Shown: one piece after another, positions 2,885-64,000 of the stretch | Layout of the letters: the number at the start of each line of letters is the position of its first letter | Numbering within the stretch: position 1 is the first letter of the stretch | Assembly (NCBI GenBank): GCA_045546075.1 | Contig: JAZQCF010000001.1 | Span: forward strand, 8,299 to 72,298 | Direction: 5' to 3' | Source of the DNA: Candidatus Enterousia sp. | Lineage (GTDB): Bacteria; Pseudomonadota; Alphaproteobacteria; Rs-D84 | Length of the DNA: 64,000 nucleotides | The notes under the pieces: generated by a model | The model's input: only the letters and a program-made list of their open reading frames with translations | Told to the model about the DNA's origin: nothing | Database searches by the model: none | Program-made: the position numbers and the translations under genes

Positions 2885-3751
2885 ATGAATTATATTGATG
2901 TATTTTTAGAGGCCATGTCCGCCGAAAAGGGGCGCAGCACAAATACGCTGGTGGCGTACGCAAGTGATTTGAACCACGCAGATGCGGCATTGCCAAACGG
3001 ATTATTGGGCGCAACGCCGGCGGATATTCAATCATATCTTGCCGGTGGTAACGTGCGTCCATCTTCGGTTGCCCGCCGCGCAAGTTGCCTGCGCAGTTTC
3101 TATAAATTTTTAATGTTGGAAAAAATCATTACAACCAACCCAACAACCAATATTGAACTGCCCAAACGAACGAAACCTTTGCCAAAGTTACTGACCACCC
3201 AAGAAATAGAATTATTGATTTCTTCGGCGGGCGACGTGCGCACTTCTATTCGGTTGCGGGCGATGATTGAATTGCTGTACGCATCTGGTCTGCGCGTGTC
3301 CGAACTGTGTGAATTGCCGATGACGGCGAACCTGGGCGACCGATTGTTAATTCACGGCAAAGGTGCCAAAGAACGGATGGTCCCGGTTCACGAATCTGCG
3401 CAAATTGCGTTAAAGAAATGGTTGGAAATGCGTGGCGACACGGATTCAAAATACGTATTTCCGTCAAATTCTGCATCAGGCCATATAACCCGCGATGGAT
3501 TTTTCAAGATATTAAAAAAATGCGCGGTCCTTGCAGGGATTGAACCAAACCGCGTAACACCGCATGTGTTGCGACATTCGTTTGCATCGCACCTGTTGGC
3601 GCATGGGGCAAACCTGCGCGCGATACAAACAATGTTGGGACACGAAGATATTTCAACGACCCAGATTTATACCCACGTGTTACCCGAAAAATTGTCTGCG
3701 GTTGTTACCGAACACCACCCATTGTCCAACACCAAGGTTCATAATAAATGA
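2885..3751 (+). CDS. xerD: Site-specific tyrosine recombinase XerD (XerC not excluded)
   Basis: N-terminal SAM-like domain (RSTNTLVAYASDL) and the C-terminal catalytic signature HVLRHSFASHLLAHGANLRAIQTMLGHEDISTTQIYTHV. Confidence 0.85.
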   Translation: MNYIDVFLEAMSAEKGRSTNTLVAYASDLNHADAALPNGLLGATPADIQSYLAGGNVRPSSVARRASCLRSFYKFLMLEKIITTNPTTNIELPKRTKPLPKLLTTQEIELLISSAGDVRTSIRLRAMIELLYASGLRVSELCELPMTANLGDRLLIHGKGAKERMVPVHESAQIALKKWLEMRGDTDSKYVFPSNSASGHITRDGFFKILKKCAVLAGIEPNRVTPHVLRHSFASHLLAHGANLRAIQTMLGHEDISTTQIYTHVLPEKLSAVVTEHHPLSNTKVHNK

Positions 3752-9199: not shown

Positions 9200-10048
9200 A
9201 TGAAAACAAAACGATTATTCCTTTTTGCAGGATATGATGCAAACGGTATCATTGATGACGCGATTATATACTATGCCGAACAACTAAATAAATTTGGCGA
9301 TATTATTTTATGTATGGATTGCGATGCAAAAAAAATAGAAACCGATAAAATAAAAAATTACTGCCTGGCCGTGATTGCCAAACGCCACGGCGAATATGAT
9401 TTTGGTTCATATAAACGCGCATACACTTTTGCACGCGATAACGACATATTAAAAAATTATGATGAAATTTATTTGGTAAATGATTCTGTCTTTGGTCCAA
9501 CAACAGATATAAAAAAAATGTTTAATCAAATGGAATCCACCAAATATGATGCAACGGGGCTTATAATATCAAAGCATCGAACACATTCATATATGGAATC
9601 TTGGTTTGTGCGGTTAAATAAAAAAATTGCCACATCAAAATGGTTTAATGATTTTATAACATCTGTCGCCGTGCAACCAACCAAGAATCGCGTTACCGTT
9701 AAATATGAACACGGTTTAAGCAATATAATTAAACAGAATAACTGTTCGTGGAATGGGATGCACATAATATGGGGGCGCACCACATACAATTATCCAAAAT
9801 ATTTATTCAATCGCGGTTGCCCGTTTATTAAGCGCGCGTGCTTTACACGGCACAACGGTGCGGCGGGCAGACAAATTAAATATATATTAAAACATTCCAA
9901 CAAACGTGCAGTGAACGCGATATTAAAAACCGCGAATCGTATATATGGAACGAAATATATGAAATGGTTGATAACATCAAATCCTTTCAAGATAATTATG
10001 CGCAAATTAAAATATGCACGACACAAAATTATTGGTGATAAAAAATGA
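9200..10048 (+). CDS. RgpF-like (rhamnan synthesis protein F family) polysaccharide biosynthesis protein
   Basis: LFLFAGYDANGIIDD...YLVNDSVFGP...YMESWFVRLNKK matches my recollection of the RgpF family core. The gene is AT-rich. Confidence 0.65.
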   Translation: MKTKRLFLFAGYDANGIIDDAIIYYAEQLNKFGDIILCMDCDAKKIETDKIKNYCLAVIAKRHGEYDFGSYKRAYTFARDNDILKNYDEIYLVNDSVFGPTTDIKKMFNQMESTKYDATGLIISKHRTHSYMESWFVRLNKKIATSKWFNDFITSVAVQPTKNRVTVKYEHGLSNIIKQNNCSWNGMHIIWGRTTYNYPKYLFNRGCPFIKRACFTRHNGAAGRQIKYILKHSNKRAVNAILKTANRIYGTKYMKWLITSNPFKIIMRKLKYARHKIIGDKK

Positions 10049-10875
10049 AGAAAAAAATTGCCGCCATAACAATGGCACGAAACGATGAATTTTTTCTATC
10101 CCGATGGGTCGAATATTATGGTCGCGAATTGGGAATAAAGAACCTGTATATCATATTAGACGGGGACGACCAAAACGCACCTAAAAATGCAAAGGGGGCA
10201 AATGTTATAAAATTGCCACATATGGAAATGTCCCGTGCAGCCGGCGATAAATACCGCATTGGTGAAATATCAAATCTGGCGGAAAAACTGTTCGAAAAAT
10301 ATGACATAGTTATTGGATGTGACTGTGATGAATTCTTGATTGTGGACCCGGACATAAAAAAATCACTTGGCGAATATTTATCTGGATTAAAATACAAAAC
10401 AACGGTATCAGGATTGGGATTGGATGTTGGGCAAAATATGAATACCGAAAAGGCACTGAATACAAAAAAACCAATGTTGGAACAACGCGGATACGCCCTG
10501 CTGTCAACCCGATATACAAAACCGGTTGTATTATTTCGCCCTGCCCGCTGGGGCAGTGGTTTCCACAGTGTTCACGGCGCAAACTTTCACATAGATAAAA
10601 ATCTGTATTTATTGCACTTTGGTGCGGTTGATATGAAAATGTTGATAACCAAGGCAACAAAACGCGGTCCCGATTGGGTAAATCACCTGCGGCGACGTGG
10701 AAACGGAACAATAAACGCGGTTACAAAAAAATATGCACATGGTGAAACATACATAAAATTTGCACGTATGATTCAGCGCATCTGTCGCCCAATATACGCA
10801 CTGGACAAACCGGCAATGTTCGGGTTAAAAATTGTCGCAAAAATTCCAACGCGCTTCAAGAAATCCGGCGTATAG
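10045..10875 (+). CDS. Glycosyltransferase (GT2-like, Glyco_tranf_2_4/GT92-like fold)
   Basis: AAITMARNDEFFLSRWVEYYGRELGIKNLYIILDGDDQ...GCDCDEFL. ATGA overlap with the previous gene. Confidence 0.6.
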   Translation: MKKKIAAITMARNDEFFLSRWVEYYGRELGIKNLYIILDGDDQNAPKNAKGANVIKLPHMEMSRAAGDKYRIGEISNLAEKLFEKYDIVIGCDCDEFLIVDPDIKKSLGEYLSGLKYKTTVSGLGLDVGQNMNTEKALNTKKPMLEQRGYALLSTRYTKPVVLFRPARWGSGFHSVHGANFHIDKNLYLLHFGAVDMKMLITKATKRGPDWVNHLRRRGNGTINAVTKKYAHGETYIKFARMIQRICRPIYALDKPAMFGLKIVAKIPTRFKKSGV

Positions 10876-10882
10876 AACGATT

Positions 10883-11902
10883 TTACGCACCAACAAACTT
10901 TATAATTTCGCGGCGTAATTTTCGCATTTTACCGGTGGGTGGAAAATCCATTACACCGATTTTGCAAAGTTTTGAAAATTTTTCACGAATCATATTCAAT
11001 GCGGACGCATCCGTTACAAATTGTATATTATCAAATGCCATATTTATATATGACCATAAAATTTTCTTGTTCCACATTTGAAATTGATATGGGTTCGCAT
11101 TATCGTGATACAACGTAAATGCCTGCTCAATCCCCGCACACAATCCATTTATCATTATAACGCGTTCATTGGGCAGTATAAATTTATCAAATTTTGGCGT
11201 GCAGTAATACAACGGCAAATTCAATATGGTCGCGCGCGGATTTTTCAATATAACGGCACTCCACCACGGAAAATCTTCGAACAAAATACCATCAATAAAA
11301 TTTATATCTGCAACCAAAGAACGCCGATACAAATGTTTGCGCACATCACAGTTTTTAATCAACCATTGCCGATTTGGATTAAATATGCTGCCCGATTGTT
11401 CTGTTACATATTTAAGAATATTATTCGTCACCAAACTGCATACATTTTCCGGCCCATATCTGCGATTTATTCCCCACGGTGTAATTTGGTTTATGTTCAT
11501 ACCGAAAAAATGTCGTGCCTTTAGACGAAAATTATAAACATCATCATAAGAATATGAAACAACATCCGAATCATCCCGACGCGCCATATAATATGTCATT
11601 TCCATTGTTTGTGGATGAATAAAATCATTACCATCCAAGAACATTATATATTCACCACTTGCGTGTTGCACACCGATATTTCGTGCATCTGCACGGCCGC
11701 CGTTTTCCTGATGAATAACGACAAAACGCTTATCACGACGTGCATATTCTTCGGCAATTTTGCCCGAATTTCCCGGATCGCCATCATCGATACAAATGGC
11801 CTGCCAATCGGTAAATGTTTGATTCAAAACGCTGTCTAAACATCTGCGCAGATATTTATCGACCGCATACATTGGTATAATTACAGATATCGCTTGTTGC
11901 AT
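10883..11902 (-). CDS. Family 2 glycosyltransferase (paralog A)
   Basis: ISVIIPMYAVDKYLRRCLDSVLNQTFTDWQAICIDDG...RFVVIHQENGGRADARN...FLDGNDF is the classic GT-A/GT2 N-terminal domain. Confidence 0.85.
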   Translation of the reverse strand: MQQAISVIIPMYAVDKYLRRCLDSVLNQTFTDWQAICIDDGDPGNSGKIAEEYARRDKRFVVIHQENGGRADARNIGVQHASGEYIMFLDGNDFIHPQTMEMTYYMARRDDSDVVSYSYDDVYNFRLKARHFFGMNINQITPWGINRRYGPENVCSLVTNNILKYVTEQSGSIFNPNRQWLIKNCDVRKHLYRRSLVADINFIDGILFEDFPWWSAVILKNPRATILNLPLYYCTPKFDKFILPNERVIMINGLCAGIEQAFTLYHDNANPYQFQMWNKKILWSYINMAFDNIQFVTDASALNMIREKFSKLCKIGVMDFPPTGKMRKLRREIIKFVGA

Positions 11903-12058
11903 AAAAATATTCCTCTTGGGTTAAAATTTCCTCAAAATTTTGCGCCAATAACCTAAGCACCACACAGATGCGTCAAAATCTCTGTTTGTTTATCCTTTTT
12001 ATATTTTTAATGGTACACCACATGGGTATTTTATCATAAAATTCAATTAAATACCAGT

Positions 12059-13063
12059 TTAAGCGATATATTCATAAATCTTGTTTCGTAACTCAAAAAA
12101 TTCATTTGGCACATTATCCAATACACCATTTGATTTCAGTTCTTGTAATATTTTACGCGCCTGGGATTTTTCTGCTTTGGATTCAAGGTATTTTGTTTTA
12201 TTAAATGCACGCCATATAAAATGCCACAAGAAATTTTCACCAAAGCATTTCATTTGATAATCGGTCGCATTATCACGATACAACGTGTATACGGCGGAAA
12301 TCCCCGTACACAGCGATTGCATCATTCGCAACTGTTTCGCCGACAAAACGATTCCACCAAAATTTGGTATGTAATAATACAGTGGTAAATTTATAATTGT
12401 TGTACGTGGATTTTTCAGCATAACGGCACCCCACCACGGAAAATCTTCAAATAAAATCCCCTTGATAAAAGGTATGTCTGCAATCAGTGAACGGCGATAC
12501 AGATTTTTCCAAACCTGACAATGTTTAACCGCCCAACGTTTGTTTTTGACATTGTGCGTACTTTCGGTTGCATATTCAAAAATATCATCTGTTACACGGG
12601 ATTCAATTTTTTTCAAATTATACTTTTTACCAAATCCCCACGGTACAACATTATTTGTATTCAGGCCTAAGAAATGCCGCACCATCAAACGCGGTCGATA
12701 AATATGGTCATACGTAAATGCAACAATATCCGCATTATCACGCCGTGCCATATAATATGTGATTTCCATTGTCTGGGGGTGAATAAAATCATCACTGTCC
12801 AAAAACATTACATATTCACCGGTTGCATATTTCATACCCGTATTACGCGCATCCGACAGACCACCATTTTTCTGGTGAATAACGACAAAGCGTTTGTCGC
12901 GCGCCGCATATTCTTGGGCGATTTCCCCCGACCGGTCCGGCGAACCATCGTCAACACAGATGGCCTGCCAATCGGCAAAGGTCTGGTTCAATACACTGTC
13001 CAAACACCGTTTCAGGTATTTTTCAACCGCATACATTGGTATAATTATCGATATTTTTGCCAT
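12059..13063 (-). CDS. Family 2 glycosyltransferase (paralog B, tandem duplicate of 10883-11902)
   Basis: MAKISIIIPMYAVEKYLKRCLDSVLNQTFADWQAICVDDG... aligns end to end with paralog A. The N-terminal half is very similar and the C-terminal half has diverged. Start taken at the internal Met (13063). Confidence 0.85.
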   Translation of the reverse strand: MAKISIIIPMYAVEKYLKRCLDSVLNQTFADWQAICVDDGSPDRSGEIAQEYAARDKRFVVIHQKNGGLSDARNTGMKYATGEYVMFLDSDDFIHPQTMEITYYMARRDNADIVAFTYDHIYRPRLMVRHFLGLNTNNVVPWGFGKKYNLKKIESRVTDDIFEYATESTHNVKNKRWAVKHCQVWKNLYRRSLIADIPFIKGILFEDFPWWGAVMLKNPRTTIINLPLYYYIPNFGGIVLSAKQLRMMQSLCTGISAVYTLYRDNATDYQMKCFGENFLWHFIWRAFNKTKYLESKAEKSQARKILQELKSNGVLDNVPNEFFELRNKIYEYIA

Positions 13064-13079
13064 ATGCACCCCCAAAAAA

Positions 13080-13853
13080 TCAAAGAAAGATTTTTATAAA
13101 TTTTCTAAATACCCATAACGTGTATACGTTGTGTTTCCTGGCATACACCGATTTATATTGTTTTGCAAATTTGTATTGTTCTTTTAATTTGCGTCTGTGT
13201 GCCGCATCCCGATTATTCAATGCCGATGTGTCGTTAAATATATAATGATAATTAACATTTGGCACAATGATAACCCGGTTTGCAACGGCAATCGCATCTA
13301 AAACAAATATCGCATCTTCTTGGGATATCAGTGACGTATCAAACATCAGTTTATTTTTTTTAATAAAATCCGTGCTAAACAAATACCGCCAAACAAAAGA
13401 TTTTACCAATGCCTGGGTCCAAAATAATTTGCCGAATAAACCCATTAAATTATGAAACCGTTTATATCTAAGGTTTGATGAATATTTACTGTTTGAAACA
13501 AAGCCTGAACAGACCATATCCGCGCCACGCGCCCCAGATATCATCAGTGCATAATATTCATCATCAATCACATCATCGGCATCCATAAAATGAATATACT
13601 CGCCACGTGCCCGTTTAATTCCATCATTACGCGCCGCCGAAACACCCGCGTTTTTTTTATTTATTACGGTAAAACGTTTGTCGCGTGCCGCATATTTATC
13701 CAGTATTTTTTGACTATCGTCCACACTGCCATCGTTTATACAAATAACCTCAAAATCTGTAAATGTCTGGCCCAATAAACTGTCCAGGCAACGCGCCAAA
13801 TATTTTTCGGCATTATACACAGGAACAATTACAGATATTTTTGGCATACGCAT
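13080..13853 (-). CDS. Family 2 glycosyltransferase
   Basis: ISVIVPVYNAEKYLARCLDSLLGQTFTDFEVICINDGSVDDS...FMDADD. Confidence 0.85.
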   Translation of the reverse strand: MRMPKISVIVPVYNAEKYLARCLDSLLGQTFTDFEVICINDGSVDDSQKILDKYAARDKRFTVINKKNAGVSAARNDGIKRARGEYIHFMDADDVIDDEYYALMISGARGADMVCSGFVSNSKYSSNLRYKRFHNLMGLFGKLFWTQALVKSFVWRYLFSTDFIKKNKLMFDTSLISQEDAIFVLDAIAVANRVIIVPNVNYHYIFNDTSALNNRDAAHRRKLKEQYKFAKQYKSVYARKHNVYTLWVFRKFIKIFL

Positions 13854-13859
13854 TTCCTT

Positions 13860-14765
13860 TCACATCTTATTTACCATTTCATCGGCAAACGTTCCGGCCT
13901 CTATCTTTTTAACCCATGGACTGTTATAAGTGGTCTTTTGAAAAAACGCACCTGATGTAACCTTATCAAAGGTTTTTTGATTAAATGGTTTGTCACCATA
14001 CGCCCACCACAGCGCGTGCGTTGGGTCTTGGTCAACGTGCGGCATTTTATCGAAATATTTTTTTGCACGCACATCATTTTGAACCAATGTTTTGAATAAT
14101 AATTGATGCATAAAGTAATCAAAACTGTGATTTTCGTGCATCCAAAAATCCAACATCATTGCACGCCACGCGTCCAACAGATATGCACCTTTGCGTGCAC
14201 GTATAAAACAGTTTTGCATAAAACTGTATGGACTTCCCACTTTTTGTCCGGCCATATACACAAAGAAATCTTGTTTGATTATCCAATCTGGAATCGGTTC
14301 GGTAACAAAGCATGTAGAATCCAACCAAATGCCACCATGTTCATACAACAATTCCACACGACAGATGTCGGCAAAATGCGCGTGTTTAATTTTACCCGCA
14401 CGCCGTTTTTCCATAATTTTGTCCGGCAAAGTTATATAGTCAAAAACCGTTTTTTCATCCAATACTATCAATTCTTGACTGCAATGCCGGCGAATACTGC
14501 AAAAACACGCCTTGACCAACGGCGGTGCCTTATCTTCGCCCTGAAGCCACAGGGTGAAAATTTTTTCATTCTTATCGTCTTTTACCACCCGGCGTTCAAG
14601 AACCCCCGCCGCGGCCGGCAAATATCGCCGAAAATATTTGGGAATTGCATCGGCCAGTATTTCACAACGCACCGCACGACGCGTGGCACGATCGCGCCAA
14701 AACCAATTTAGTATATGTGCACGCACAATTATATTGGCCAACGCACACGTCCGTGCAATTCCCAT
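13860..14765 (-). CDS. Capsular polysaccharide synthesis (Caps_synth / DXD sugar transferase-like) protein
   Basis: IFTLWLQGEDKAPPLVKACFCSIRRH...FADICRVELLYEHGGIWLDSTCF resembles the Caps_synth family core. Confidence 0.65.
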   Translation of the reverse strand: MGIARTCALANIIVRAHILNWFWRDRATRRAVRCEILADAIPKYFRRYLPAAAGVLERRVVKDDKNEKIFTLWLQGEDKAPPLVKACFCSIRRHCSQELIVLDEKTVFDYITLPDKIMEKRRAGKIKHAHFADICRVELLYEHGGIWLDSTCFVTEPIPDWIIKQDFFVYMAGQKVGSPYSFMQNCFIRARKGAYLLDAWRAMMLDFWMHENHSFDYFMHQLLFKTLVQNDVRAKKYFDKMPHVDQDPTHALWWAYGDKPFNQKTFDKVTSGAFFQKTTYNSPWVKKIEAGTFADEMVNKM

Positions 14766-17213: not shown

Positions 17214-17648
17214 TTATGCTTTTTGCTGATTGCGCTTTTCGTACATATCGGCAAAATCAACCATTTGCATCGCAAACGGTGGGAATCCGGATTCTGCGGT
17301 CAGGCGTGTAACCAATGCGCGCACAGATGGGAACAACAATGTCGGTACATCAATCAACAAAGTACGTTTTTTGGCCTCTTCATCTTTTTCGGCTTCATCG
17401 ATTTGAACCAAACCGGTATATGTTGCCTCAATCAAGAATATAGATTTAGAATCGGCCTTTAATTTTGAATGAATTTTTGTAATTAAATCAACCATATACA
17501 GATTTTTTTCCGAACCTTTGACCTGCATATCGATATTTATTTCCAATTCCGCCTGGCCATTATCCTGCTTAAAAAATAAATCTGGGACATTTGGACTTTC
17601 GAAAGAAATGTCTTTAAGGAATTGGGATATAATATTGAACTTTGCCAT
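17214..17648 (-). CDS. secB: Protein-export chaperone SecB
   Basis: MAKFNIISQFLKDISFESPNVPDLF...LLFPSVRALVTRLTAESGFPPFAMQMVDF, 144 aa. The 285-aa ORF in the track is an upstream over-extension. Confidence 0.9.
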   Translation of the reverse strand: MAKFNIISQFLKDISFESPNVPDLFFKQDNGQAELEINIDMQVKGSEKNLYMVDLITKIHSKLKADSKSIFLIEATYTGLVQIDEAEKDEEAKKRTLLIDVPTLLFPSVRALVTRLTAESGFPPFAMQMVDFADMYEKRNQQKA

Positions 17649-17729
17649 TGCGATTGCTCCTTTTTTTATGACTCGTTTTATGATAATATAGCATAGAAGG
17701 GAAATTTTACAAGTGGGGGAATAAATAAA

Positions 17730-18836
17730 ATGCAAACAAATGTTTTTAAGTGGATTTTGCGTGGTGCGATATGTGGATTGTGCGGGCTGTTTTTGGCATC
17801 GTGCGACCTGTCGACACCAACGCACAGTGGGGACGATTCGGTCGTCCCGGGCGAAAATTTGAAGAAAGTATCTTATGCCGACCTGCCGGATTGGGAAAAA
17901 GACGATGTCCGCTATGCGCTTCAGGCGTTTCGTAATTCGTGCAAGGCGAAAATTCAATACAAAGGCCGCGTTGTTCCGGACCGCGCGCTGTTCGAAGAAA
18001 AATGTAATATGTTGCCCAGTGCCAGTGCAGATGTTGCAACGGTTCGCGCATGGTTCGAATCGAATTTCCAACCATATAAAATCTATAACGATAACGGAAC
18101 CAGCAAGGGGACATATACCGGATACTATTCGCCGGTGATTCCGGGTTGCCGGACCAAGACGGCCGAATGCAACGAACCGTTAATGGGCATCCCAACCGAT
18201 GGACGTAATTACAAGGGTGTTTCCAAAAAGCAAATTGTTGAAAACAAAATTGGTCGCGTCCTGTATTGGGCAAACATTGTTGATGTCCAAAACATCCAAA
18301 TCCAGGGCAGCGGTATGTTAAAACTGGCGGACGGCACAATGGTAAAATTGAACTTTGCCGCCGTAAATGATTTACCGTTCAAATCCATTGGTGAACAATT
18401 ACGCAACCGGGGCATCCGGCCCGATGGCGGATATTCGGCGGATGCGGTTTGGACGCATTTGAAAAAGAATCCAAAACTTGCCAAAGAAGTTATTTATAAC
18501 AATCCACGTTATGTCTATTTCTATGAATCGGTCCCGCCGGATGTGATTGGTAAACTTGGCACACCGCTTTCGAAAATTCGCAGTATTGCGATGGACGATT
18601 CGCTGTATACGTTGGGTTTACCCGTATACATCGATACAAACCTGTCAAACGGACAAAAATTTAGACGTTTAATGGTCGCCCAAGACACCGGCAGCGCCAT
18701 CCGCGGTTTCGTCCGTGCCGATATATTCTTTGGCAAAGGCGACGAAGCATATAAATATGCCCACGGCCAACACGCCCAGGGCGAGATGTATATTTTAATG
18801 CCGAAAGAATACAGTTATGTCAAACCCAAAAAGTAA
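17730..18836 (+). CDS. mltA: Membrane-bound lytic murein transglycosylase A (lipoprotein)
   Basis: Lipobox LASC, MltA-specific region (LPDWEKDDVRYALQAFRNSC) and a C-terminal 3D domain (VAQDTGSAIRG...DIFFG). Confidence 0.85.
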   Translation: MQTNVFKWILRGAICGLCGLFLASCDLSTPTHSGDDSVVPGENLKKVSYADLPDWEKDDVRYALQAFRNSCKAKIQYKGRVVPDRALFEEKCNMLPSASADVATVRAWFESNFQPYKIYNDNGTSKGTYTGYYSPVIPGCRTKTAECNEPLMGIPTDGRNYKGVSKKQIVENKIGRVLYWANIVDVQNIQIQGSGMLKLADGTMVKLNFAAVNDLPFKSIGEQLRNRGIRPDGGYSADAVWTHLKKNPKLAKEVIYNNPRYVYFYESVPPDVIGKLGTPLSKIRSIAMDDSLYTLGLPVYIDTNLSNGQKFRRLMVAQDTGSAIRGFVRADIFFGKGDEAYKYAHGQHAQGEMYILMPKEYSYVKPKK

Positions 18837-31806: not shown

Positions 31807-32811
31807 ATGCAAAAAATAGATTTAGTTTATATGTGGGTTGATGGTAACGATAAAAAATGGCAACGCGAAAAAGAAAAATATCTGGCCGGCGAACGCGGCA
31901 AAACAAACCTGCCGCCCGATGCGACCGTGGATGCCCGTTGGCGCGATAACGATGAATTAAAATACGCCCTGCGCAGTGTGGAAAAATACATTCCGTGGAT
32001 AAATCATATTTATATTATTACCGGATTTAACCAGGTTCCAAAATGGCTGAACACCAAACATCCAAAAATTACAATTATCCCACATCAAGACATAATGCCA
32101 AACTATGCAATGCCGACATTTTGTTCCGACAATATTGAAATGTGTATCGGCAATATCTCTAATCTGGCAGAACATTTTTTATTATCAAATGACGATATGT
32201 TTTTTGCACGCCCGCTTGCCCCGTCTTTCTTTTTTGATTCCCGGGGGCGCGCGATTTTCCGTTACCATAAATCACATAAATTTATTCAATGCATTGGTTT
32301 CGCATTAGAAAAACAAACAGATTACCGGCAAAGATTAACCATCGCGCAACAAAAAATATATAAAACATTTAATAAAAAACTGTTTACATACCTGCCATCA
32401 CACGGAATTGATCCATATATAAAATCCACAGTTATAAATTGCCGCAATCACCCACTTATAAAACGTGATATTGATTTACAGTTATTTGATAAATTTCGCC
32501 ACGGCAATCAAATTCAAAGAATTATTTTTAACCTGTACGACAAGATACACGGCACCGCAAAATTCATCCGCACCCGAAACTATAAACAAACAAAATGCAA
32601 ATTATGGAATAAAATATATAACGCAATTCATTGTCGGTGCATTAAAAATTCGCCGTGTTATTGTACCGATGCAAACAAGGCAAATTTATATAAACGTACA
32701 CCACCGATTGTCTGTATAAACGACACTGCAATAACAACCGATGAAATGCGTGAAAACAATCGAAAGTGGCTTGAATGGAAATTCCCAACAAAATCCAGTT
32801 TTGAAAAATAA
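31807..32811 (+). CDS. Stealth family (CR1-CR3) sugar-1-phosphate transferase, capsule or exopolysaccharide type
   Basis: CR1 IDLVYMWVDGNDKKW, CR2 RDNDELKYALRSVEKYIPWINHIYIITGFNQVPKWL and CR3 FLLSNDDMFF. Confidence 0.8.
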   Translation: MQKIDLVYMWVDGNDKKWQREKEKYLAGERGKTNLPPDATVDARWRDNDELKYALRSVEKYIPWINHIYIITGFNQVPKWLNTKHPKITIIPHQDIMPNYAMPTFCSDNIEMCIGNISNLAEHFLLSNDDMFFARPLAPSFFFDSRGRAIFRYHKSHKFIQCIGFALEKQTDYRQRLTIAQQKIYKTFNKKLFTYLPSHGIDPYIKSTVINCRNHPLIKRDIDLQLFDKFRHGNQIQRIIFNLYDKIHGTAKFIRTRNYKQTKCKLWNKIYNAIHCRCIKNSPCYCTDANKANLYKRTPPIVCINDTAITTDEMRENNRKWLEWKFPTKSSFEK

Positions 32812-47720: not shown

Positions 47721-47794
47721 TGGGGTGTCGTCTAATGGTAGGACAAGAGATTTTGGTTCTCTTTATCATGGTTCGAATCCGTGCGCCCCAACCA
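47721..47794 (+). tRNA. tRNA-Gln (anticodon UUG), CCA encoded
   Basis: Hand-folded. Acceptor TGGGGTG/CGCCCCA, D arm GTCT-AATGGTA-GGAC, anticodon stem AGAGA/TCTCT with loop TTTTGGT (UUG), T arm CATGG-TTCGAAT-CCGTG, discriminator A, CCA. Confidence 0.9.
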
Positions 47795-54791: not shown

Positions 54792-56111
54792 TTATTCGCG
54801 CAAGAAATTCCGCAATGCATCCCCGACCAACTGCGGTTCATCCGGAATATCATTTGGGTTTACAATCGAAACAATCCGTGGCGACATAAATACAACCAAT
54901 TCTGCAAACGGACTTATCAATGTTTCCGGTGTTGTAACAAACGAATGTGTTGGAATACCAATTATGACATAGTTATCACCGACACTGGACGGAATTGTAA
55001 ATGATGTCAATTCGCCCTTGCTGGTCCGCAGGACGATTTTCGCGTCTATCTTGTTTCGACCGGCGTAATCGCCGTATTTCGCACTGGCCCCCACAATCAG
55101 GTCTGTTTCTATACGGTCTTCTTTGCTGCATTGACCGATATCGAATCGGGATTGCCAACCGTCCGGCACCACAAAATGCCCCTGGGATATAAGAACAACA
55201 TTGGATTGCGCAGACAAGAATTCTTGTAATGTTTTGGTGTTAACTTCGGGCCCAACAACCAACGCACGCCCAACAACCCCCGGCACAGACATTTTAATAT
55301 TTTTTTCACCAAAGGCCGGCAACATATTCATCCATATAATTGGATTGTCCGTCCGCGGATACACGCGATACACATCCATATCCCACGCCAAGACATATTT
55401 TTTGGATGCTATATCGGCAATTATGCGTGTAACTTCGCGCTCGGTTTGATAATTGCCTTCGAAAACAACGGTTTTATCCGCCCAATCCACAATCAGGTTT
55501 CTTACATCCGCCCCATGCATTGCATCCAACAATGCCATTATTATATCCTGCTCTGCCGGCATTTTTATCAACCATTTTGCCCGATTGGACAGTTTTATTT
55601 CACCACCCGCGGCATCATATGAATAATACATCCGCCCCAGGCGTGCAATCAAATCCACCGTATCGGCCAGGTTTCCCGACGCAACCGACCCAGACACCTT
55701 TTCATATCCGGGTTCTTCTTCAATAACGGCAATATCAACACCTTCCAATAATTTATTTAACGCATTTGCAACGGTCTGTTTCCTGAAATCATAGTCCGTA
55801 ACGTTTAATTCCGGCAAATCATCACCTTTGTCCAGGCGCACCATTTCAATTTTTTCATCCGGCACAACCGACACAACCGATTGACTGTCCCAATTTACCG
55901 TGCATCGCCGCGGCAATTCGATAGAAAATCGCCGTGCGGTATCGGTGGTCAACGCCGCCTTTTTCGGGAAAATCGGCACAGAATTATCATCTATGACCAA
56001 ATTATCAATAACCTGAACCGTGTCATAGTATACCGTTTCATCCGCGCCATTGTTTCGCACACACGCCCCTAAACACACAGCCATCAAAACAAAATTTATT
56101 ATTTTTTTCAT
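54792..56111 (-). CDS. Outer-membrane lipoprotein with a secretin-like C-terminal region (tentative)
   Basis: Lipobox LGAC. An N-domain-like segment (QTVANALNKLLEGVDIAVI). The C-terminal pattern SNVVLISQGHFVVPDGWQSRFDIG...TIPSSVGDNYVIIGIP...AELVVFMSPRIVS resembles the secretin core (..v.dG.tvviGGl..eLlifitPriv). Confidence 0.4.
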   Translation of the reverse strand: MKKIINFVLMAVCLGACVRNNGADETVYYDTVQVIDNLVIDDNSVPIFPKKAALTTDTARRFSIELPRRCTVNWDSQSVVSVVPDEKIEMVRLDKGDDLPELNVTDYDFRKQTVANALNKLLEGVDIAVIEEEPGYEKVSGSVASGNLADTVDLIARLGRMYYSYDAAGGEIKLSNRAKWLIKMPAEQDIIMALLDAMHGADVRNLIVDWADKTVVFEGNYQTEREVTRIIADIASKKYVLAWDMDVYRVYPRTDNPIIWMNMLPAFGEKNIKMSVPGVVGRALVVGPEVNTKTLQEFLSAQSNVVLISQGHFVVPDGWQSRFDIGQCSKEDRIETDLIVGASAKYGDYAGRNKIDAKIVLRTSKGELTSFTIPSSVGDNYVIIGIPTHSFVTTPETLISPFAELVVFMSPRIVSIVNPNDIPDEPQLVGDALRNFLRE

Positions 56112-56126
56112 TTGTTTTACCCCGGG

Positions 56127-56450
56127 TTAAATATTCATTACCTTTTCGAATTCTTCCAATGTCATTTCATATATCGGCTTTTGCGAAGGCGTTGTCAAAT
56201 CACGCACATGTTCGAATTGCGCGCGAAACCGTTCCAAGACCGACACCACATCCGGCGATACATTTTTATTTGATTTTACCAAACGTTCACCATATTCTAC
56301 AACAAATTCTAACACATCCGCCGCAAAAAAACGACCGACATAATTTTCCATTGGAATTCCACCCTTGTTGACACATATTGCCGACATAGTCTTGGCGGTT
56401 TGATTATAAAAATTTGCCAACTTAATAAAATTTTGAACTGTTATCGCCAT
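56127..56450 (-). CDS. Hypothetical cytoplasmic protein (107 aa), first gene of the cluster
   Basis: GGGGGA SD 5 nt before ATG 56450. There is a 15-nt gap to the next gene. I recognise no motif. Confidence 0.45.
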   Translation of the reverse strand: MAITVQNFIKLANFYNQTAKTMSAICVNKGGIPMENYVGRFFAADVLEFVVEYGERLVKSNKNVSPDVVSVLERFRAQFEHVRDLTTPSQKPIYEMTLEEFEKVMNI

Positions 56451-56525
56451 CTTGTTCCCCCGATACATTTTTATACATTATAAAAACTATTGCCACCAAA
56501 ACGCAATTAAATTATAATAGGAAAT

Positions 56526-56915
56526 ATGAGAATGTTAAAAATATTTTTATTTGTTGGTTTATTTGGGATGGCGGCCTGCACATCCCCCAACGGCGGCAGC
56601 ATTGATGACGCAACCATTTTGAATTGGGAAAACGAATCTGTCACGACCGAACAGTTTGTTCGTGATCACCGGGCGTGCCTTGGGATAACACAACCATCAT
56701 ATATGCCACGTTCGCGCCTTGCAAAACTGTTGTCCCCAACACAAAGTACCCGTATGCCGGATTGGGATGGATTGTGGGTAACATTTCAATCAAACGAATA
56801 CAAGGATGTTGGCCAACGCGCATTATTGTCTGTGCCACGCAACACGACATCAAAATCTGTGGGATCTTACCGAAAATGTATGTTCCGCCGCGGATATTTA
56901 TTGCGCGCAATGTAA
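56526..56915 (+). CDS. Small lipoprotein
   Basis: Lipobox GMAAC after a hydrophobic signal. Divergent from the lol cluster and upstream of ftsQ. Confidence 0.5.
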   Translation: MRMLKIFLFVGLFGMAACTSPNGGSIDDATILNWENESVTTEQFVRDHRACLGITQPSYMPRSRLAKLLSPTQSTRMPDWDGLWVTFQSNEYKDVGQRALLSVPRNTTSKSVGSYRKCMFRRGYLLRAM

Positions 56916-56969
56916 ATTTTTTGCGCGGTCACTTTTACATTTAATATAAAGTATGATATAATACGCCAT

Positions 56970-57650
56970 ATGAAACGTAACCTTTGGTTTTGGCTTTATT
57001 TTATTGCCGCCATATTATTGGCGATATACTTTGCGACGCGAATCATTATGACCTTTATGGGATATGGCCCAATATCTACGGTTCGTAATATATCTATATC
57101 GGCGGACACAAAAAACAAAGACCTGACCCAAATGGTGGCGGCGGCGGGTGTTGCACCGGGTACGCACGCATATTCGGTAAACCTGGAATTGATAAATGAA
57201 CGGTTGCTGAATACACCGGGGATTCGCGAATCGGCGGTGCGACGATTACCAAATGGGAATTTATCTGTGCGGGTGCACCTGTATCGTGCGGTTGCCGGTT
57301 GGACCGATGGAACATATTATTATCCACTGTCCGCGGATGGCACCGTTGTCAACAGCCCCAGTGAAGAAAAAAAGCCGGGTGTTGTTATGTTTCGTGGCCC
57401 CGTTCCAAACGATATTGCCGATATAACAAAATCCGCGACAAACCTTATTGGGAATTTGGATTATATGGAATGGATTGACAACCGACGTTGGAATATCATA
57501 ACCACAGATGGTATAACGATTATGCTGCCCGAAGAAGACCCAAATGCGGCAATCGCATCACTGATTGTATTAAACGACAAACATAATATTTTATCCAAGA
57601 ACATAAAAACGATTGATATGCGTGATAGCGCAAGGATTTTGGTTAAATAA
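56970..57650 (+). CDS. ftsQ: Cell division protein FtsQ
   Basis: N-terminal TM anchor, POTRA-like segment (INERLLNTPGIRESAVRRLPNGNLSVRV), and position immediately upstream of ftsA. Confidence 0.75.
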   Translation: MKRNLWFWLYFIAAILLAIYFATRIIMTFMGYGPISTVRNISISADTKNKDLTQMVAAAGVAPGTHAYSVNLELINERLLNTPGIRESAVRRLPNGNLSVRVHLYRAVAGWTDGTYYYPLSADGTVVNSPSEEKKPGVVMFRGPVPNDIADITKSATNLIGNLDYMEWIDNRRWNIITTDGITIMLPEEDPNAAIASLIVLNDKHNILSKNIKTIDMRDSARILVK

Positions 57651-59441
57651 ATGAATATGCTGGATTCATCTTTTCTGTGTTTAGACATCGGTTCGTGCGG
57701 TGTCCGCGGAATGGCGTATCGCATTCGTAATGCCGAAATTGATAAAAGCGTATATTATTCTGTGGACGATTTTGATACAGTATTCGCATTAAAATCTGTT
57801 ATTGATGAATTGGAACGACAAATTGGAACGCATTTTAATGCGGCATATATAACAGGAAACTTTGGTCCATCATATTTCAAGATGACCAGTAAAAGCACCA
57901 CTTGGCCCGGCGACCACAAAATAACCGCCGCCGATATAAAATCACAAATTGCCGAAATTGATGCCCCCGATGGATTTTATCCAATGCATATAATTCCATT
58001 GCGATATGACACACCGAAAATTCGTAATATGCTGACCCCAATCGGGCACAGCGACAGACAATTAGTGTCCGCATTTTCTGCGTTGTTTTTTGATGGCGAA
58101 TATATGAAAAAAATCCAAAACCTGATGCGACGCGCACATATTCAATCAAACGCATTCTATACGCCACATTTCCTGGGGAATTCGATTCTACGCAAAAAGA
58201 ATCAAACGATTATGTTCATTGATTTTGGCGCAGAAAACACAACAACATCCATATGGACCGACCGTGGACCTGTTTGTTATAACGGCCGCGCGATTGGTGG
58301 AAACGATTTAACCACCGAAATATCAACACGACTGAATATACCATTTGCCGATGCCGAACGTATTAAACGCGCGGTGGCGGACCTTAAATCAAATGAAATG
58401 GCACGTTTCAGTCCTGCCGATTCTGCATATGCGTTTTCCTGTGCGGATGTAAATGAAATCGTTGTTCCGTTTTATAATAATTTAATTGATGGCATTAAAA
58501 GTGATATTGCCGAATATATTGATAAATATTCACCAACACAAATTATTATTGGTGGCGGTGGCGCAAACATAAATGGAATTGACGATTTAATGACCGGGGC
58601 GTTTAACAACATACCTTTCGTCAAAAAAGACCCTGATTGGGCGGTGCGTACATTGGCGGAATATATATGGGAATGTGAATTACCACGGCGGCGCGCATAT
58701 ATTGCACGCGCACAACATATCCAAAATCGTATGAATAAAATTGTTGGTATCTTCAAACGCAAACGCCGTGTACACAAACGAAACATACCAATTTTCCCAA
58801 GCACCCTTTGTTTCGATATGGCACGTCCCGAAACATATACAATGTTTCAAACCGGTGGCATATCAACAATACACGTTGATATTATGGATGGATTATATGT
58901 AAACAAAATTGCGGGTGGTATTGATGAATTACGCCAAATCCGGGCATCTTGGGATGGACATTTGCACGTCCACCTTATGACCGATGCACCCGCCGAATGG
59001 GCGCGCAGCGCGATTAATTCTGGGGCGGACACAATTATTGTTTCGACAAATACCGCAGGATTACGCAGTGCGGTTCAAATTGTTCGTGAATCAGGCCGAC
59101 GCATTGGTATTGCACTAAATCCCGAATCTTCGGTATCGTTATTAAAAACTGTCTTGCGTGATTTAGACGAAGTGATGATTATGGGGGTCACCCCGGGTGC
59201 CGCCGGCCAAGAATTTAATCGGGATGTGTTACATAAAATATCTGTATTAAACGCAACCCGAAAAAAATATGGATTAAAATTTACAATATCTGTTGATGGT
59301 GGAATAACACCCGAAACGGCACGTATGTGTTGGGCCGCAGGCGCAGATTCATTGGTGTCGGGGTCATACCTGGCATCGGCACCGGATTTTCCGTTGGCGG
59401 TATTATCCTTGTTGCCGCCCCAAAAAATTAACGCAGTATAA
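57651..59441 (+). CDS. FtsA-like actin-fold protein fused in frame to ribulose-phosphate 3-epimerase
   Basis: aa 1-~365 carry CLDIGSCGVRG, FIDFGAENTTTS and IIIGGGGANINGIDDL. A basic linker NKIVGIFKRKRRVHKRN follows. aa ~379-585 carry IFPSTLCFD, IHVDIMDG, HVHLMT, MGVTPGAAGQEF and SVDGGI, which make a complete Rpe barrel. Confidence 0.75.
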   Translation: MNMLDSSFLCLDIGSCGVRGMAYRIRNAEIDKSVYYSVDDFDTVFALKSVIDELERQIGTHFNAAYITGNFGPSYFKMTSKSTTWPGDHKITAADIKSQIAEIDAPDGFYPMHIIPLRYDTPKIRNMLTPIGHSDRQLVSAFSALFFDGEYMKKIQNLMRRAHIQSNAFYTPHFLGNSILRKKNQTIMFIDFGAENTTTSIWTDRGPVCYNGRAIGGNDLTTEISTRLNIPFADAERIKRAVADLKSNEMARFSPADSAYAFSCADVNEIVVPFYNNLIDGIKSDIAEYIDKYSPTQIIIGGGGANINGIDDLMTGAFNNIPFVKKDPDWAVRTLAEYIWECELPRRRAYIARAQHIQNRMNKIVGIFKRKRRVHKRNIPIFPSTLCFDMARPETYTMFQTGGISTIHVDIMDGLYVNKIAGGIDELRQIRASWDGHLHVHLMTDAPAEWARSAINSGADTIIVSTNTAGLRSAVQIVRESGRRIGIALNPESSVSLLKTVLRDLDEVMIMGVTPGAAGQEFNRDVLHKISVLNATRKKYGLKFTISVDGGITPETARMCWAAGADSLVSGSYLASAPDFPLAVLSLLPPQKINAV

Positions 59442-59838
59442 TTTTACGCCCCGCCCCATATTCACAAATATCAATATGAACAGTGTTTTCCGGCAACATA
59501 TCCGCCGCAATATCCGGCCATTCAATCAATGTTATATCGTTTTGAATTGAATGTTCCAAACCGATTTCTACCAATTCCGCCGCATCCGCAATTCTGTATA
59601 AATCAAAATGCGATATTTTTGTATCGCCCGCAACATACGTTTGAACCAATGTAAATGTTGGACTTGGCACCACGGTATTTTCCCCGCACAGTGTTTGAAT
59701 AATTGTTCGCGCGATTTCACTTTTTCCAACACCCAAATCCCCGTGCAGCGCGACACAAACCGGCGCGGTCAATGTTCGCGCAAATTCGCGTGCGAATTCA
59801 CGTGTTTCGTTTATGTCTTTTGTAATGTATGTTTTCAT
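59428..59838 (-). CDS. tsaE: tRNA t6A37 biosynthesis protein TsaE
   Basis: ALHGDLGVGKSEIARTI P-loop and SPTFTLVQTY. Convergent 14-nt overlap with the previous gene. Confidence 0.85.
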   Translation of the reverse strand: MKTYITKDINETREFAREFARTLTAPVCVALHGDLGVGKSEIARTIIQTLCGENTVVPSPTFTLVQTYVAGDTKISHFDLYRIADAAELVEIGLEHSIQNDITLIEWPDIAADMLPENTVHIDICEYGAGRKIILR

Positions 59839-61833: not shown

Positions 61834-61885
61834 ATTTACCAGTATAATTCATTATAATGGAAAAACAAGAGGGGGGATAAATAAT

Positions 61886-64000
61886 ATGATTATCAAACCA
61901 CACCATAAACGCAGGACGTTTTGGACCATTGTTGTTACAACCGGTGTTATTATAATCGGGCTGTTGCTTGCGCCAACTTTTATCAATTTGAATAAATTGC
62001 GGTCCCACTTTGAATCCGCGGTGTTCGAGCAAACCGGGGTTGTAACAAAGATTCACGGTGATGTAAATTTTGGTATTCTGGGGTCAACCCACCTGATTGC
62101 CCATGGTGTGGAAACCGAACACGGATTTACCAAAATGTTGGCTATAAACATACCGTTTTCGGGCCTGTTTGATTTGGCAAACACAGAAATAAATGATGTT
62201 ATAACCGCCTATGAACCACACATATATGTGGATTCTCTATCCTTGTTACATGTGAAATATCGATTGTATGTAAAAAATGCAATCATGACCTTTATGGGTA
62301 AAGATTATAAAATCATTCGTGGTTTATTTAGTCATGGCACCTTTGATGGCCAGGTCCGTACCAGCGAACATAAATACGATATTTCATTCAAAGGTAATGA
62401 TTTTAAGGTTACGAACAAAAACCTGAAATTAAACATTACGGGTGAATACTTTCCATCCGGCGGTGCCGCAGGTATATTGGAAATAAACACCAACAAGATA
62501 AATTCTTGGTTTGGTTTTGACGAACCCAACATTACACACAACGTCAAATTAACAACAAATTTTTATTGGGATGGCGGATACGGATTTAAGTTTACAGACA
62601 TTGTTGCGAATAATCTTCATGGTGATGTTACATTGGAACCAAATGGTTGGCGCACAATCAACGTTGAATCCGATAACATTTCATTTGATTTTTCTTTTCT
62701 GTCAAAACCGTCTAATTTTGCCAAAGACACAACATTAAAGGTTGATTTCTACGGCGACCTTGTATTTAATAATCATCGTTTTGAACACGTACAAATAGAT
62801 GCTGTCGGTGTCCAAGATTATATACAAATAAATAAAATTATCGCAGATTCTACTTCGTTCACCGGTGGAACCATTGACAACCACGGTGCGCACGAAATAA
62901 TGATTCGAACAATACTGGATGATAAAAAAACCGAATGTTTATTTTCCGGCACAGAAAATAATTTTGAATGCCAGAATTTTGTCTATGGCGACATAACCGG
63001 TAATTTGAAATATAAAAATCGGGTATTAGAGGCAGATATTTCATCAAATCGCAAACTGGATTTGAAAGAATTAGAATCATATATTAAACGAATTGGCGCA
63101 CAAAGTGCAACCATACGATTTAAGTTTGCAAATATGGGCGGGGTTTTCACACAAACAAAAAAATCTTCTTCTATCAAATACGATTATATTTATGATAAAA
63201 CATTATCTTGGTTAAACCCACACATGAAATCATTGCCGGCATTTATGATGGACAGTCCGGGAAATATGGTATGGTCAGGCGACAGTTTTTCATTTACACC
63301 GAACACAAACGATTGGTCTTTGTCTTTGCGCGATAATTTCTTTTATATCTCAGGCCAAGATATAAAAAAATGGTTCCCCAATATGGACCTGCGCACAATA
63401 AACAGTCTTGAATACATCATGACCGGTTTTTACAATGACCAAGGCGATGTATCAAATTTAACACTTCAAATTGCCGGCCATACATTTACCGGCACCGCAG
63501 ACAAACGTTCGTTAACCCTGCATACAAACGTTTTTGATATTGATGCGTTTTTAACAGATGAATTTTTCGAACGATACGAAGAACTGGAATTTTTAACCAA
63601 CAGTCCATTATTATTACCGTTTGATTTTTCACGCAATATATATTTAACGGCGGACACATTGGTATATGGTGAAAATTCATATAATAATTTTGTATATTCA
63701 TTAAAATCTGGGACACAAACATTTTCTATAACCGATAATGCCCGTGGAAATATGTTGGCAACAATAATCAAAGAACGTTCTGTTTATGATATATTTATTC
63801 AATTAAATAAATTTGTAATAAATGGAAAACTGTTGTCCAACGAATTTCCACTGAACATTATGAACACATCAATAACCGCAGAAATAAATCTTAAAACCCA
63901 CGGACACATCGCACACGATATTAAATACAATATGACCGGGGACTTGGATTTGACGTTTGATGGCGGATATATCACCGGAATTGGACTGGACGCATTTTAT
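61886..64000 (+). CDS. AsmA family protein (N-terminal 705 aa; continues past the right edge)
   Basis: Absent from the ORF track because it is open at the edge. ATG 61886 follows a GAGGGGGG SD. The N-terminal anchor plus APTFINLNKLRSHFESAVFEQTGVVTKIHGDVNFGIL matches the AsmA N-terminal pattern, and a long beta-rich body follows. Confidence 0.6.
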   Translation, partial: MIIKPHHKRRTFWTIVVTTGVIIIGLLLAPTFINLNKLRSHFESAVFEQTGVVTKIHGDVNFGILGSTHLIAHGVETEHGFTKMLAINIPFSGLFDLANTEINDVITAYEPHIYVDSLSLLHVKYRLYVKNAIMTFMGKDYKIIRGLFSHGTFDGQVRTSEHKYDISFKGNDFKVTNKNLKLNITGEYFPSGGAAGILEINTNKINSWFGFDEPNITHNVKLTTNFYWDGGYGFKFTDIVANNLHGDVTLEPNGWRTINVESDNISFDFSFLSKPSNFAKDTTLKVDFYGDLVFNNHRFEHVQIDAVGVQDYIQINKIIADSTSFTGGTIDNHGAHEIMIRTILDDKKTECLFSGTENNFECQNFVYGDITGNLKYKNRVLEADISSNRKLDLKELESYIKRIGAQSATIRFKFANMGGVFTQTKKSSSIKYDYIYDKTLSWLNPHMKSLPAFMMDSPGNMVWSGDSFSFTPNTNDWSLSLRDNFFYISGQDIKKWFPNMDLRTINSLEYIMTGFYNDQGDVSNLTLQIAGHTFTGTADKRSLTLHTNVFDIDAFLTDEFFERYEELEFLTNSPLLLPFDFSRNIYLTADTLVYGENSYNNFVYSLKSGTQTFSITDNARGNMLATIIKERSVYDIFIQLNKFVINGKLLSNEFPLNIMNTSITAEINLKTHGHIAHDIKYNMTGDLDLTFDGGYITGIGLDAFY

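Follow-up and report, generated by a model that had tools for sequence, protein, structure and literature searches.

The stretch of DNA analysed here, which we call the window, comprises 64,000 nucleotides (nt) from Candidatus Enterousia sp., a member of Rs-D84 (assembly GCA_045546075.1, contig JAZQCF010000001.1, positions 8,299-72,298, forward strand). Our subject is one open reading frame (ORF) at 57651..59441 on the plus strand, 596 codons plus a stop, which joins ftsA to rpe, the gene for ribulose-phosphate 3-epimerase (Rpe). An earlier note on this DNA had described it as an in-frame FtsA-Rpe fusion, and profile and structure comparison bear out both domains. The uninterrupted frame of 596 codons is present as described. 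The note had let it start 1 nt after ftsQ; the adjacency holds, but the actual spacer is 0 nt, the fusion ATG adjoining the TAA stop of ftsQ. This upstream gene (56970..57650, plus strand) encodes a protein of 226 amino acids (aa) recognised by Pfam FtsQ_DivIB_C (2.9e-10), weakly by POTRA_1 and by NCBIfam FtsQ (4e-6). Downstream, in the position that ftsZ occupies in canonical division and cell-wall (dcw) clusters, lies the convergent tsaE (59428..59838, minus strand, 136 aa, Pfam TsaE 4e-33), and the fusion shares its last 14 nt with it, the same overlap that the note had seen.

FtsA and Rpe were each recognised by Pfam, NCBIfam, a profile search of the PDB and Foldseek. Pfam places FtsA (PF14450) at residues 189-319 with 43.6 bits (cut-off 31.8) and Ribul_P_3_epim (PF00834) at residues 383-574 with 137.1 bits (cut-off 21.1, 6.6e-40), the latter covering model positions 4-197 of 198. 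The NCBIfam scores are 64.7 bits for the FtsA half with TIGR01174 (cut-off 175.85), and for the Rpe half 164.5 bits with NF004076 (cut-off 165) and 147.9 bits with TIGR01163 (cut-off 212.6). An AlphaFold2 model of the full chain contains both folds at a mean predicted local distance difference test score (pLDDT) of 90.5, with both domains above 90.

The actin-like FtsA core, delimited by Foldseek, profile and AlphaFold2, spans residues 1-343 (57651..58679, plus strand) with subdomains 1A, 1C, 2A and 2B. Subdomain 1C, the SHS2 insert that FtsA has in place of subdomain 1B, lies at residues ~74-148 (57870..58094, plus strand) with the predicted elements E74-90, H93-101, E109-120 and E134-148. 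In the Foldseek comparison with the PDB, the top 18 matches were all FtsA structures (from Thermotoga, Vibrio, Xenorhabdus, E. coli and Staphylococcus), with target template-modelling (TM) scores of 0.64-0.75 over ~350-390 columns, subdomain 1C included; 1e4g, 4a2a and 7q6f reached 0.70-0.75. A profile built from 33 homologs of the fusion matched Vibrio maritimus FtsA (7q6f) over positions 5-340 at 1.2e-26. The phosphate and adenosine motifs that the earlier note had reported are present as DIGS at D12, DFGAE at D191 and GGGGA at G302, and the 33 homologs show little or no variation at D12-I-G14, D191-F-G193-A-E and G302-G-G-G-A. The FtsA hallmark AERIK stands at residues 235-239 in subdomain 2B, within a stretch (AERIK...MARFSPAD.AYAFS.ADVN) strongly conserved in the clade; it is through this subdomain that FtsA, which also recruits late divisome proteins, binds the C-terminal peptide of FtsZ. 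Pfam gave no SHS2 match at E<=0.1 in the window protein itself; it did find SHS2_FTSA in other fusions, namely P0155 (6.6e-8), P0145, P0144, P0148 and, most strongly, P0146 (2.1e-11). By these profile and model comparisons the N-terminal half is a complete FtsA fold, and the motifs for nucleotide binding are present.

PilM (2YCH, 5EOX) has to be considered at this point: within the actin-like superfamily it shares the FtsA/PilM branch with the fusion, and like the fusion it carries a GAE-type phosphate-2 loop. The N-terminal half might be an FtsA/PilM-like ATPase paralogue that anchors or regulates the epimerase; the genome would then encode a canonical ftsA at another site, beside ftsZ. The score under the NCBIfam FtsA cut-off, the additional matches to PilM models, the PilM name that NCBI gives to some members and the lack of an adjacent ftsZ in the window or in 89 related loci all speak for it. 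Those PilM matches, however, are partial: PilM_2 and TIGR01175 match residues ~181-328 only, at 43 bits (cut-off 133), and in the PDB search with the 33-homolog profile the matches to PilM and MreB were confined to the actin fold's C-terminal half (~174-330), whereas FtsA profile and structures match the whole domain. The gene always sits directly after ftsQ, at a spacer of -4 to +15 nt, and no pilN, pilO, pilP or pilQ gene lies near the fusion. The most conservative member, P0146 (623 aa), scores 165 bits with the FtsA equivalog TIGR01174 (cut-off 175.85) and stands in the order 97-aa ORF (FtsL-sized)-ftsI-ftsQ-ftsA::rpe-rpmB. We rejected the PilM identity, whose models cover only residues ~174-330 and with which the gene context disagrees, and regard a paralogue of this kind as quite unlikely; the PilM name on fusion entries is very probably a mis-annotation.

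The second half is a (beta/alpha)8 barrel of the ribulose-phosphate-binding superfamily at residues 380-590 (58788..59420, plus strand), delimited by Pfam, by mapping onto 2FLI and by Foldseek. It superposes on 2FLI, the Rpe of S. pyogenes, with a target TM score of 0.92 and a root-mean-square deviation of 1.3 Å over 209 columns, and positions 379-587 of the 33-homolog profile match the same protein at 3.7e-53. The window barrel alone matches at 9.8e-32 and 33% identity, so aligned that H408, D410, H441 and D549 fall on H34, D36, H67 and D176 of 2FLI, which are reportedly (Akana et al. 2006) the metal ligands and catalytic residues, two catalytic Asp among them. All four are invariant in the 33 homologs, as are the Met cushion (M412, M443, M511) and the phosphate loops (P515-G-A-A-G-Q520 and G571-S572), the first of these having the form GAAGQ in place of GFGGQ. 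The metal and catalytic motifs that the earlier note had called intact were found in full (PSTLCFD, HVDIMDG with H408/D410, HLM with H441, PGAAGQEF, VDGG with D549), and the decay of catalytic residues that it had named as an argument against a functional fusion does not occur in the window protein. The barrel is thus predicted to be a full, catalytically competent Rpe. Rpe enzymes of bacteria and plastids are known as hexamers, those of bacteria being obligate oligomers, and their PDB entries contain 3, 6 or 12 chains.

Clade-wide, the barrel could nevertheless be a pseudoenzyme or have another activity, such as that of another sugar-phosphate epimerase or a ligand sensor, with the real Rpe encoded elsewhere or absent. 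Its scores under the equivalog cut-offs, matches to allulose-6-phosphate epimerase models, the replacement of FVPN by YV(N/D/E)(K/R/N) and the clear dead sites of some lineages point that way. We find this unlikely, given that the window protein and 19 of 22 divergent representatives keep the four metal and catalytic residues together with the Met cushion and the two phosphate loops, that the Rpe segment has the lowest ratio of nonsynonymous to synonymous substitution rates (dN/dS) of all segments (0.06), that P0146 passes the Rpe subfamily cut-off (NF004076, 193.8 bits against 165), and that the barrel fits 2FLI so closely. Other Rpe fusions also occur in the protein database, with PASTA (P0326), thiamine pyrophosphokinase (P0292) and AP_endonuc_2 (P0299); given these, Rpe is a recurrent fusion partner of operon neighbours.

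Between the two domains lies an amphipathic basic helix in the AlphaFold2 model, a candidate membrane-targeting sequence, at residues 344-368 (..AYIARAQHIQNRMNKIVGIF; 58680..58754, plus strand). It is followed by a strongly basic, disordered tether at residues 369-379 (KRKRRVHKRNI; 58755..58787, plus strand), with pLDDT below 50 at 369-376. The earlier note had pointed to an amphipathic, basic stretch at the place of the FtsA membrane helix, and this character extends to 33 of 33 homologs, whose 42-47-aa junctions hold 9-15 K/R against 0-5 D/E. By hydrophobic moment, the strongest segment of the linker falls within the protein's top 1% in about two thirds of the 33 homologs and comes first in eight. 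F368 is conserved at 90% or more, and a pattern W/I..(K/R)(I/V)..(I/L)F(K/H)R(K/R)n can be written; otherwise the sequence of the linker varies, and what is constant is its charge and amphipathicity. P0146 carries WVQIKNWFEKHL at the position of the helix. The pattern, and WVQIKNWFEKHL of P0146 especially, resembles the C-terminal amphipathic helix of E. coli FtsA, which we take to be GSWIKRLNSWLRKEF. The function of this membrane-targeting helix in FtsA is reviewed in PMC5832921. These features suggest that the ancestral FtsA membrane helix may have been kept as an internal, in-plane anchor.

We also considered whether the epimerase could be made separately. According to the earlier note, the first Rpe strand lies upstream of M390, the only internal Met; the strand does lie there, but M390 is not alone, as M361 (ATG at 58731-58733) also exists near the junction, upstream of the basic tether. 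M361 has no Shine-Dalgarno sequence and is unconserved, relatives having V, T, L or others, and M390 comes after the first barrel strand, so that an internal start for a separate Rpe was rejected. Promoter-like matches inside the fusion ORF are weak, reaching 9/12 at most. Alternatively, the chain might be a polyprotein, cut in the basic linker into an FtsA with a terminal membrane helix and a free Rpe. Predicted disorder and a high K/R content at residues 369-376 would make this stretch accessible to proteases, but the variable linker shows no conserved protease site motif and we know of no precedent for such cleavage of FtsA. We judge this processing very unlikely.

To see how far the fusion extends, we scanned GTDB with one genome per species and obtained 497 tblastn-confirmed stretches that encode a relative of it; the best 80 of the 497 were inspected and are all full-length. 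These 80 come from rumen, faecal and other gut metagenome-assembled genomes (MAGs) named Candidatus Enterousia, 'Alphaproteobacteria bacterium' or 'uncultured Rickettsiales bacterium', and one of the source genomes is a circular long-read MAG (OZ007020.1, 958,618 bp). The protein database holds more than 120 clusters at 90% identity among the matches listed, with 58-100% identity and both domains, and lengths of 588-598 aa save for two partial entries (567 and 529 aa). Coding sequences (CDS) extracted from 85 loci are uninterrupted in 85 of 85 cases and 588-623 aa long, and 84 start with ATG. Their linkers vary between 32 and 41 aa by whole-codon changes only. The same architecture recurs in at least 18 clusters at 50% identity, so the related genomes do carry the same fusion. 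Relatives with separate genes or with a start codon at the junction, which the earlier note had named as grounds for an artefact, did not appear among the 85 CDS, all of them continuous.

Selection was estimated by the Nei-Gojobori method from 63 unsaturated pairs among the extracted CDS. The FtsA core has a dN/dS of 0.087, the linker one of 0.18 and Rpe one of 0.06, so all three segments are under purifying selection. A frame-fusing indel in this contig, which would make the fusion an artefact of assembly, sequencing or annotation, is rejected and has a practically negligible probability. Beyond the general worry about a single MAG-derived contig, nothing spoke for it. Against it, the 85 intact orthologous CDS come from many studies, hosts and assemblers, the circular long-read MAG included, the junction itself is under selection and changes length by whole codons, and ahead of the barrel there is neither a conserved start codon nor a Shine-Dalgarno sequence.

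For more distant relatives, the FtsA half alone was searched with HMMER against 1.84 billion representatives. The closest stand-alone FtsAs have 21-31% identity, with E ~1e-12 or weaker, and are outranked by about 19 representatives (clusters at 50% identity) of 542-623 aa; of these, 18 were scanned and all 18 carry the Rpe domain. Among the scanned fusions, identity falls as low as 23% for the FtsA half, against 34-62% for the Rpe half. The shorter high-scoring matches inspected (P0121, P0126) are truncated or frameshifted fusion fragments, and no split ftsA/rpe version was found among the hits of this search. The breadth across lineages of 23-30% identity in the FtsA half, together with the division-cluster context of P0146, therefore points to a single fusion event from a bona fide FtsA. 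As judged from these sequence comparisons, the fusion is a shared trait of the order-level clade Rs-D84.

Some lineages have lost the active site while keeping the domain. The catalytic residues H408, D410, H441 and D549 are kept in 19 of the 22 divergent fusion representatives and lost in P0135, P0405 and P0129, whose genes lie at L086 10001-11770, L087 5415-7187 and L089 4568-6295, with 19-20% GC in the gene and 24-26% in the locus. P0135 and P0405 are 75% identical to each other and stand for 18 member sequences on contigs of up to 198 kb, with loci of 25% GC. Their barrels show H408Y, D410T/S, D549C, G551D and altered phosphate loops, and the FtsA nucleotide motifs are lost as well (D12S, D191N, G193E, GGGG to SGSN). 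The genes are still full-length and still lie between ftsQ and tsaE, and both folds are still predicted for the protein of this lineage (pLDDT 88.1). Between P0135 and P0405 the barrel is the most conserved segment, with 80% identity and a dN/dS of 0.20; the N-domain has 0.36 and the linker 0.30. P0129, a singleton on a contig of 23.6% GC, has lost H408, H441, D549 and the PGxGGQ loop and has kept the FtsA motifs; by these substitutions its decay is independent of that in P0135/P0405. A dead barrel of 210 residues that stays under purifying selection in a reducing genome argues for a structural contribution to the fusion, and we therefore see in these lineages a hint, from their sequences, that the barrel has a structural role.

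The link to ftsQ is as constant as the fusion itself. ftsQ directly precedes the fusion in 80 of 80 GTDB loci, even where the flanks are rearranged, and in distant lineages. With few exceptions the spacer measures -4 to +15 nt; this short spacing suggests that the two genes are translationally coupled. A candidate promoter, TTTACA-17 nt-TATAAT with a TG extension, lies before ftsQ at 56934..56962 (plus strand); it is a sigma-70-like consensus match only (11/12), and the total of promoter-like sites in the region is not above shuffled expectation. Downstream, tsaE follows in most loci. In 38 loci the two genes end close together, their stops either overlapping by 4-14 nt or leaving a gap of 1-6 nt, while in 32 the gap exceeds 60 nt, and no intrinsic terminator was found between them in the window at 59428-59441.

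Consistent with the earlier note, ftsZ does not follow the fusion. Neither a GGG[TS]G[TS]G regular expression in six frames nor tblastn with E. coli FtsZ found FtsZ in the 64-kb window. The same tblastn query gave no match at E<=1 in the window and 85 loci, and none at E<=0.01 in the window and 89 related loci, which amount to 1.73 Mb with ~10 kb on either side of the fusion. Besides ftsQ and the fusion, Pfam found no other division gene and no rpe, tkt or rpi among the ~50 window genes annotated.

We consider it probable that a single chain of ~66 kDa is the FtsA orthologue of this lineage, fused at its C-terminus to Rpe since the ancestor of Rs-D84, a gut-associated alphaproteobacterial order with reduced genomes, and that it is bifunctional and membrane-associated. 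ftsQ and the fusion would be transcribed together and translationally coupled. The actin-like core (1-343) would perform the divisome role and interact with FtsZ, while the helix and tail at 344-379, the former FtsA membrane-targeting sequence, would now bind the membrane from an internal position on the inner leaflet. The barrel (380-590) would be a competent, metal-dependent Rpe held at the membrane or divisome, and the fusion would be both the only FtsA and the only Rpe of the genome. Since bacterial Rpe enzymes are obligate oligomers, the oligomeric barrel would probably also make FtsA multivalent, and a structural contribution of this sort would explain the keeping of dead-site barrels. 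FtsA function indeed depends on oligomeric state (PMC5832921, PMC11323482). Metabolically, the barrel would supply the step between ribulose 5-phosphate (Ru5P) and xylulose 5-phosphate (Xu5P) in a truncated non-oxidative pentose-phosphate pathway, of which Rs-D84 is reported to encode the steps except transaldolase (PMC12306168).

Several points weigh against this explanation. The FtsA half is highly diverged, with 15-16% identity to solved FtsAs in the Foldseek alignments, scores far below the TIGR01174 cut-off, and has GAEN as its phosphate-2 loop where canonical FtsA has GGGT. The Rpe half also stays under its two NCBIfam cut-offs, narrowly with NF004076, and YVNK replaces the canonical FVPN, which leaves some doubt about its substrate. 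AlphaFold2 places the two domains relative to each other with low confidence (predicted TM score 0.60), and the uncut 66-kDa chain is a prediction from sequence. The dead-site evidence is thin, consisting of one pairwise dN/dS in a lineage of 20-25% GC and one singleton contig. Finally, a neutral fusion of neighbours in a shrinking genome would give most of the observations too.

Such neutral compaction is the main rival. It supposes that ftsZ moved off and that deletion of the stop and spacer joined ftsA to rpe with no functional coupling, after which the fusion persisted, as splitting would need a new start site. Rs-D84 genomes measure 0.75-1.0 Mb (PMC12306168), and OZ246409.1 has 716,531 bp. 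This small size, the tight packing seen in the tsaE overlap and the 0-nt ftsQ spacer, the fusion of Rpe to other neighbours elsewhere, and a disordered tether between domains without a confident mutual arrangement are what one would expect of such a process. On the other hand, the fusion has outlived a divergence that leaves 23% identity in the FtsA half, the hits include no split version, and a dead barrel has remained undeleted and even most constrained, although reduction would be expected to drop a useless 210 aa. Neutral compaction thus explains the origin well and the persistence of dead barrels less well, and as a full account we hold it possible rather than probable. We hold it likewise possible rather than probable that the barrel has become a structural or regulatory divisome module, which would cluster FtsA at the membrane, possibly in response to pentose phosphates, and would live on as a pseudoenzyme where the pathway is lost, being still needed for division.

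Set beside canonical FtsA (E. coli, Thermotoga maritima, Vibrio maritimus; 1E4G, 4A2A, 7Q6F), the fusion shares the actin-like fold with 1C/SHS2, the nucleotide motifs, AERIK in 2B, the place directly after ftsQ and the amphipathic basic helix after the core. It differs, besides its low identity, its score and its GAEN loop, in the 210-aa enzyme that follows the helix and makes it internal, and in the lack of ftsZ downstream. Compared with stand-alone Rpe (2FLI, Synechocystis 1TQJ, E. coli Rpe), it has the full barrel, the His/Asp/His/Asp site, the Met cushion and the phosphate loops, but the barrel is tethered at its N-terminus to FtsA through a candidate membrane-binding linker, has YV(N/D)(K/R) for FVPN, and has been retained in two sublineages whose active site decayed.

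Metabolic enzymes that modulate division are known in UgtP of B. subtilis, OpgH of E. coli and GdhZ/KidO of Caulobacter, the last being an alphaproteobacterial precedent. Like the fusion, they connect central carbon metabolism with the division machinery. Those are separate proteins that act in trans on FtsZ, whereas in the fusion the enzyme and FtsA form one covalent chain, and it is this physical linkage that is shown. In E. coli, cells without rpe are small and grow slowly, and in pentose-phosphate mutants the frequency of Z-rings no longer follows the growth rate (PMC5825171). A dead barrel kept under selection is compatible with a non-catalytic role in division, though regulation is not demonstrated thereby. 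In the work of Shiomi and Margolin (2007/2008) on engineered variants with an altered C-terminus (membrane helix replaced, FtsA in tandem or dimerised), FtsA is said to tolerate other C-terminal membrane anchors, and its forced dimerisation reportedly strengthens Z-ring integrity. Whereas those variants are laboratory constructs in E. coli, the fusion is a natural architecture fixed across an order, in which an Rpe oligomer could act similarly.

The author of the earlier note knew of no described FtsA fused to a pentose-phosphate enzyme, and our search of the literature likewise found no description of a protein in which FtsA is fused to ribulose-phosphate 3-epimerase. Neither FtsZ nor FtsA is mentioned in the mSphere paper on Rs-D84. 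Database names for the fusion are automatic ('ribulose-phosphate 3-epimerase', 'pilus assembly protein PilM' or 'hypothetical') and so conceal one of the halves or mislabel it as PilM, and JGI and NCBI annotate the fusion as Rpe. Both domain families are well known; the fused architecture is undescribed in the literature searched, ancient and taxonomically broad, and a functional coupling is plausible.

The fusion has lolCDE, three genes of no known family, ftsQ, tsaE and uvrB as its neighbours in the window. The three genes between lolCDE and ftsQ are unmatched in Pfam and NCBIfam and encode a 439-aa lipoprotein (54792-56111, minus strand), a 113-aa protein (56127-56468, minus strand) and a 129-aa lipoprotein (56526-56915, plus strand). 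The block lolD-lolCE-X-Y-Z-ftsQ-ftsA::rpe is kept in the most divergent fusion lineages (L083, L085, L086, L087, L089), which suggests an envelope- or division-related module. Beyond uvrB, an open frame of at least 722 codons (61835-64000, plus strand) runs past the end of the window in a region of 36% GC; by synteny with L083/L086 it would be an AsmA-like gene of ~825 aa. The sole other gene of the window linked to segregation or division encodes a XerC/XerD-type tyrosine recombinase (2885-3751, plus strand) with Phage_integrase and a SAM-like N-domain.

Farther away, the SecB ORF (17214-18071, minus strand, 285 aa) has its SecB domain at residues 143-283 only, and its 5' part overlaps the MltA ORF (17730-18836, plus strand), so that the true SecB start is probably internal. 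Surface-polysaccharide genes occupy 9200-14765 (RgpF-like, four GT2 glycosyltransferases and Caps_synth), and a Stealth-family protein is encoded at 31807-32811; this cluster and the Stealth protein are notable for a genome of ~1 Mb without most biosynthesis. Rfam and tRNA scans of the window returned only an unrelated tRNA-Gln at 47721-47794.

FtsA is the main membrane anchor of the division ring and is thought to need a free C-terminal amphipathic helix and a suitable oligomeric state. A 24-kDa oligomeric enzyme placed behind this helix throughout a clade, even with a dead site, is a natural experiment. It opens the questions of whether an internal FtsA membrane helix is workable, what forced multivalency does to FtsA, and whether carbon metabolism is wired into cytokinesis. 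For the annotation of abundant rumen and gut bacteria there is a practical side, as pathway reconstructions count the Rpe but may miss the FtsA, or the reverse, while the fusion itself offers a clean synapomorphy and marker for Rs-D84. Its importance would rise if the barrel organises FtsA, if pentose phosphates tune division, or if these genomes lack ftsZ. Should ftsZ prove absent from Rs-D84 genomes, the fusion would belong to an unusual way of using FtsA without FtsZ; and should the barrel be a divisome module, it would constitute a natural covalent tie of central carbon metabolism to cytokinesis.

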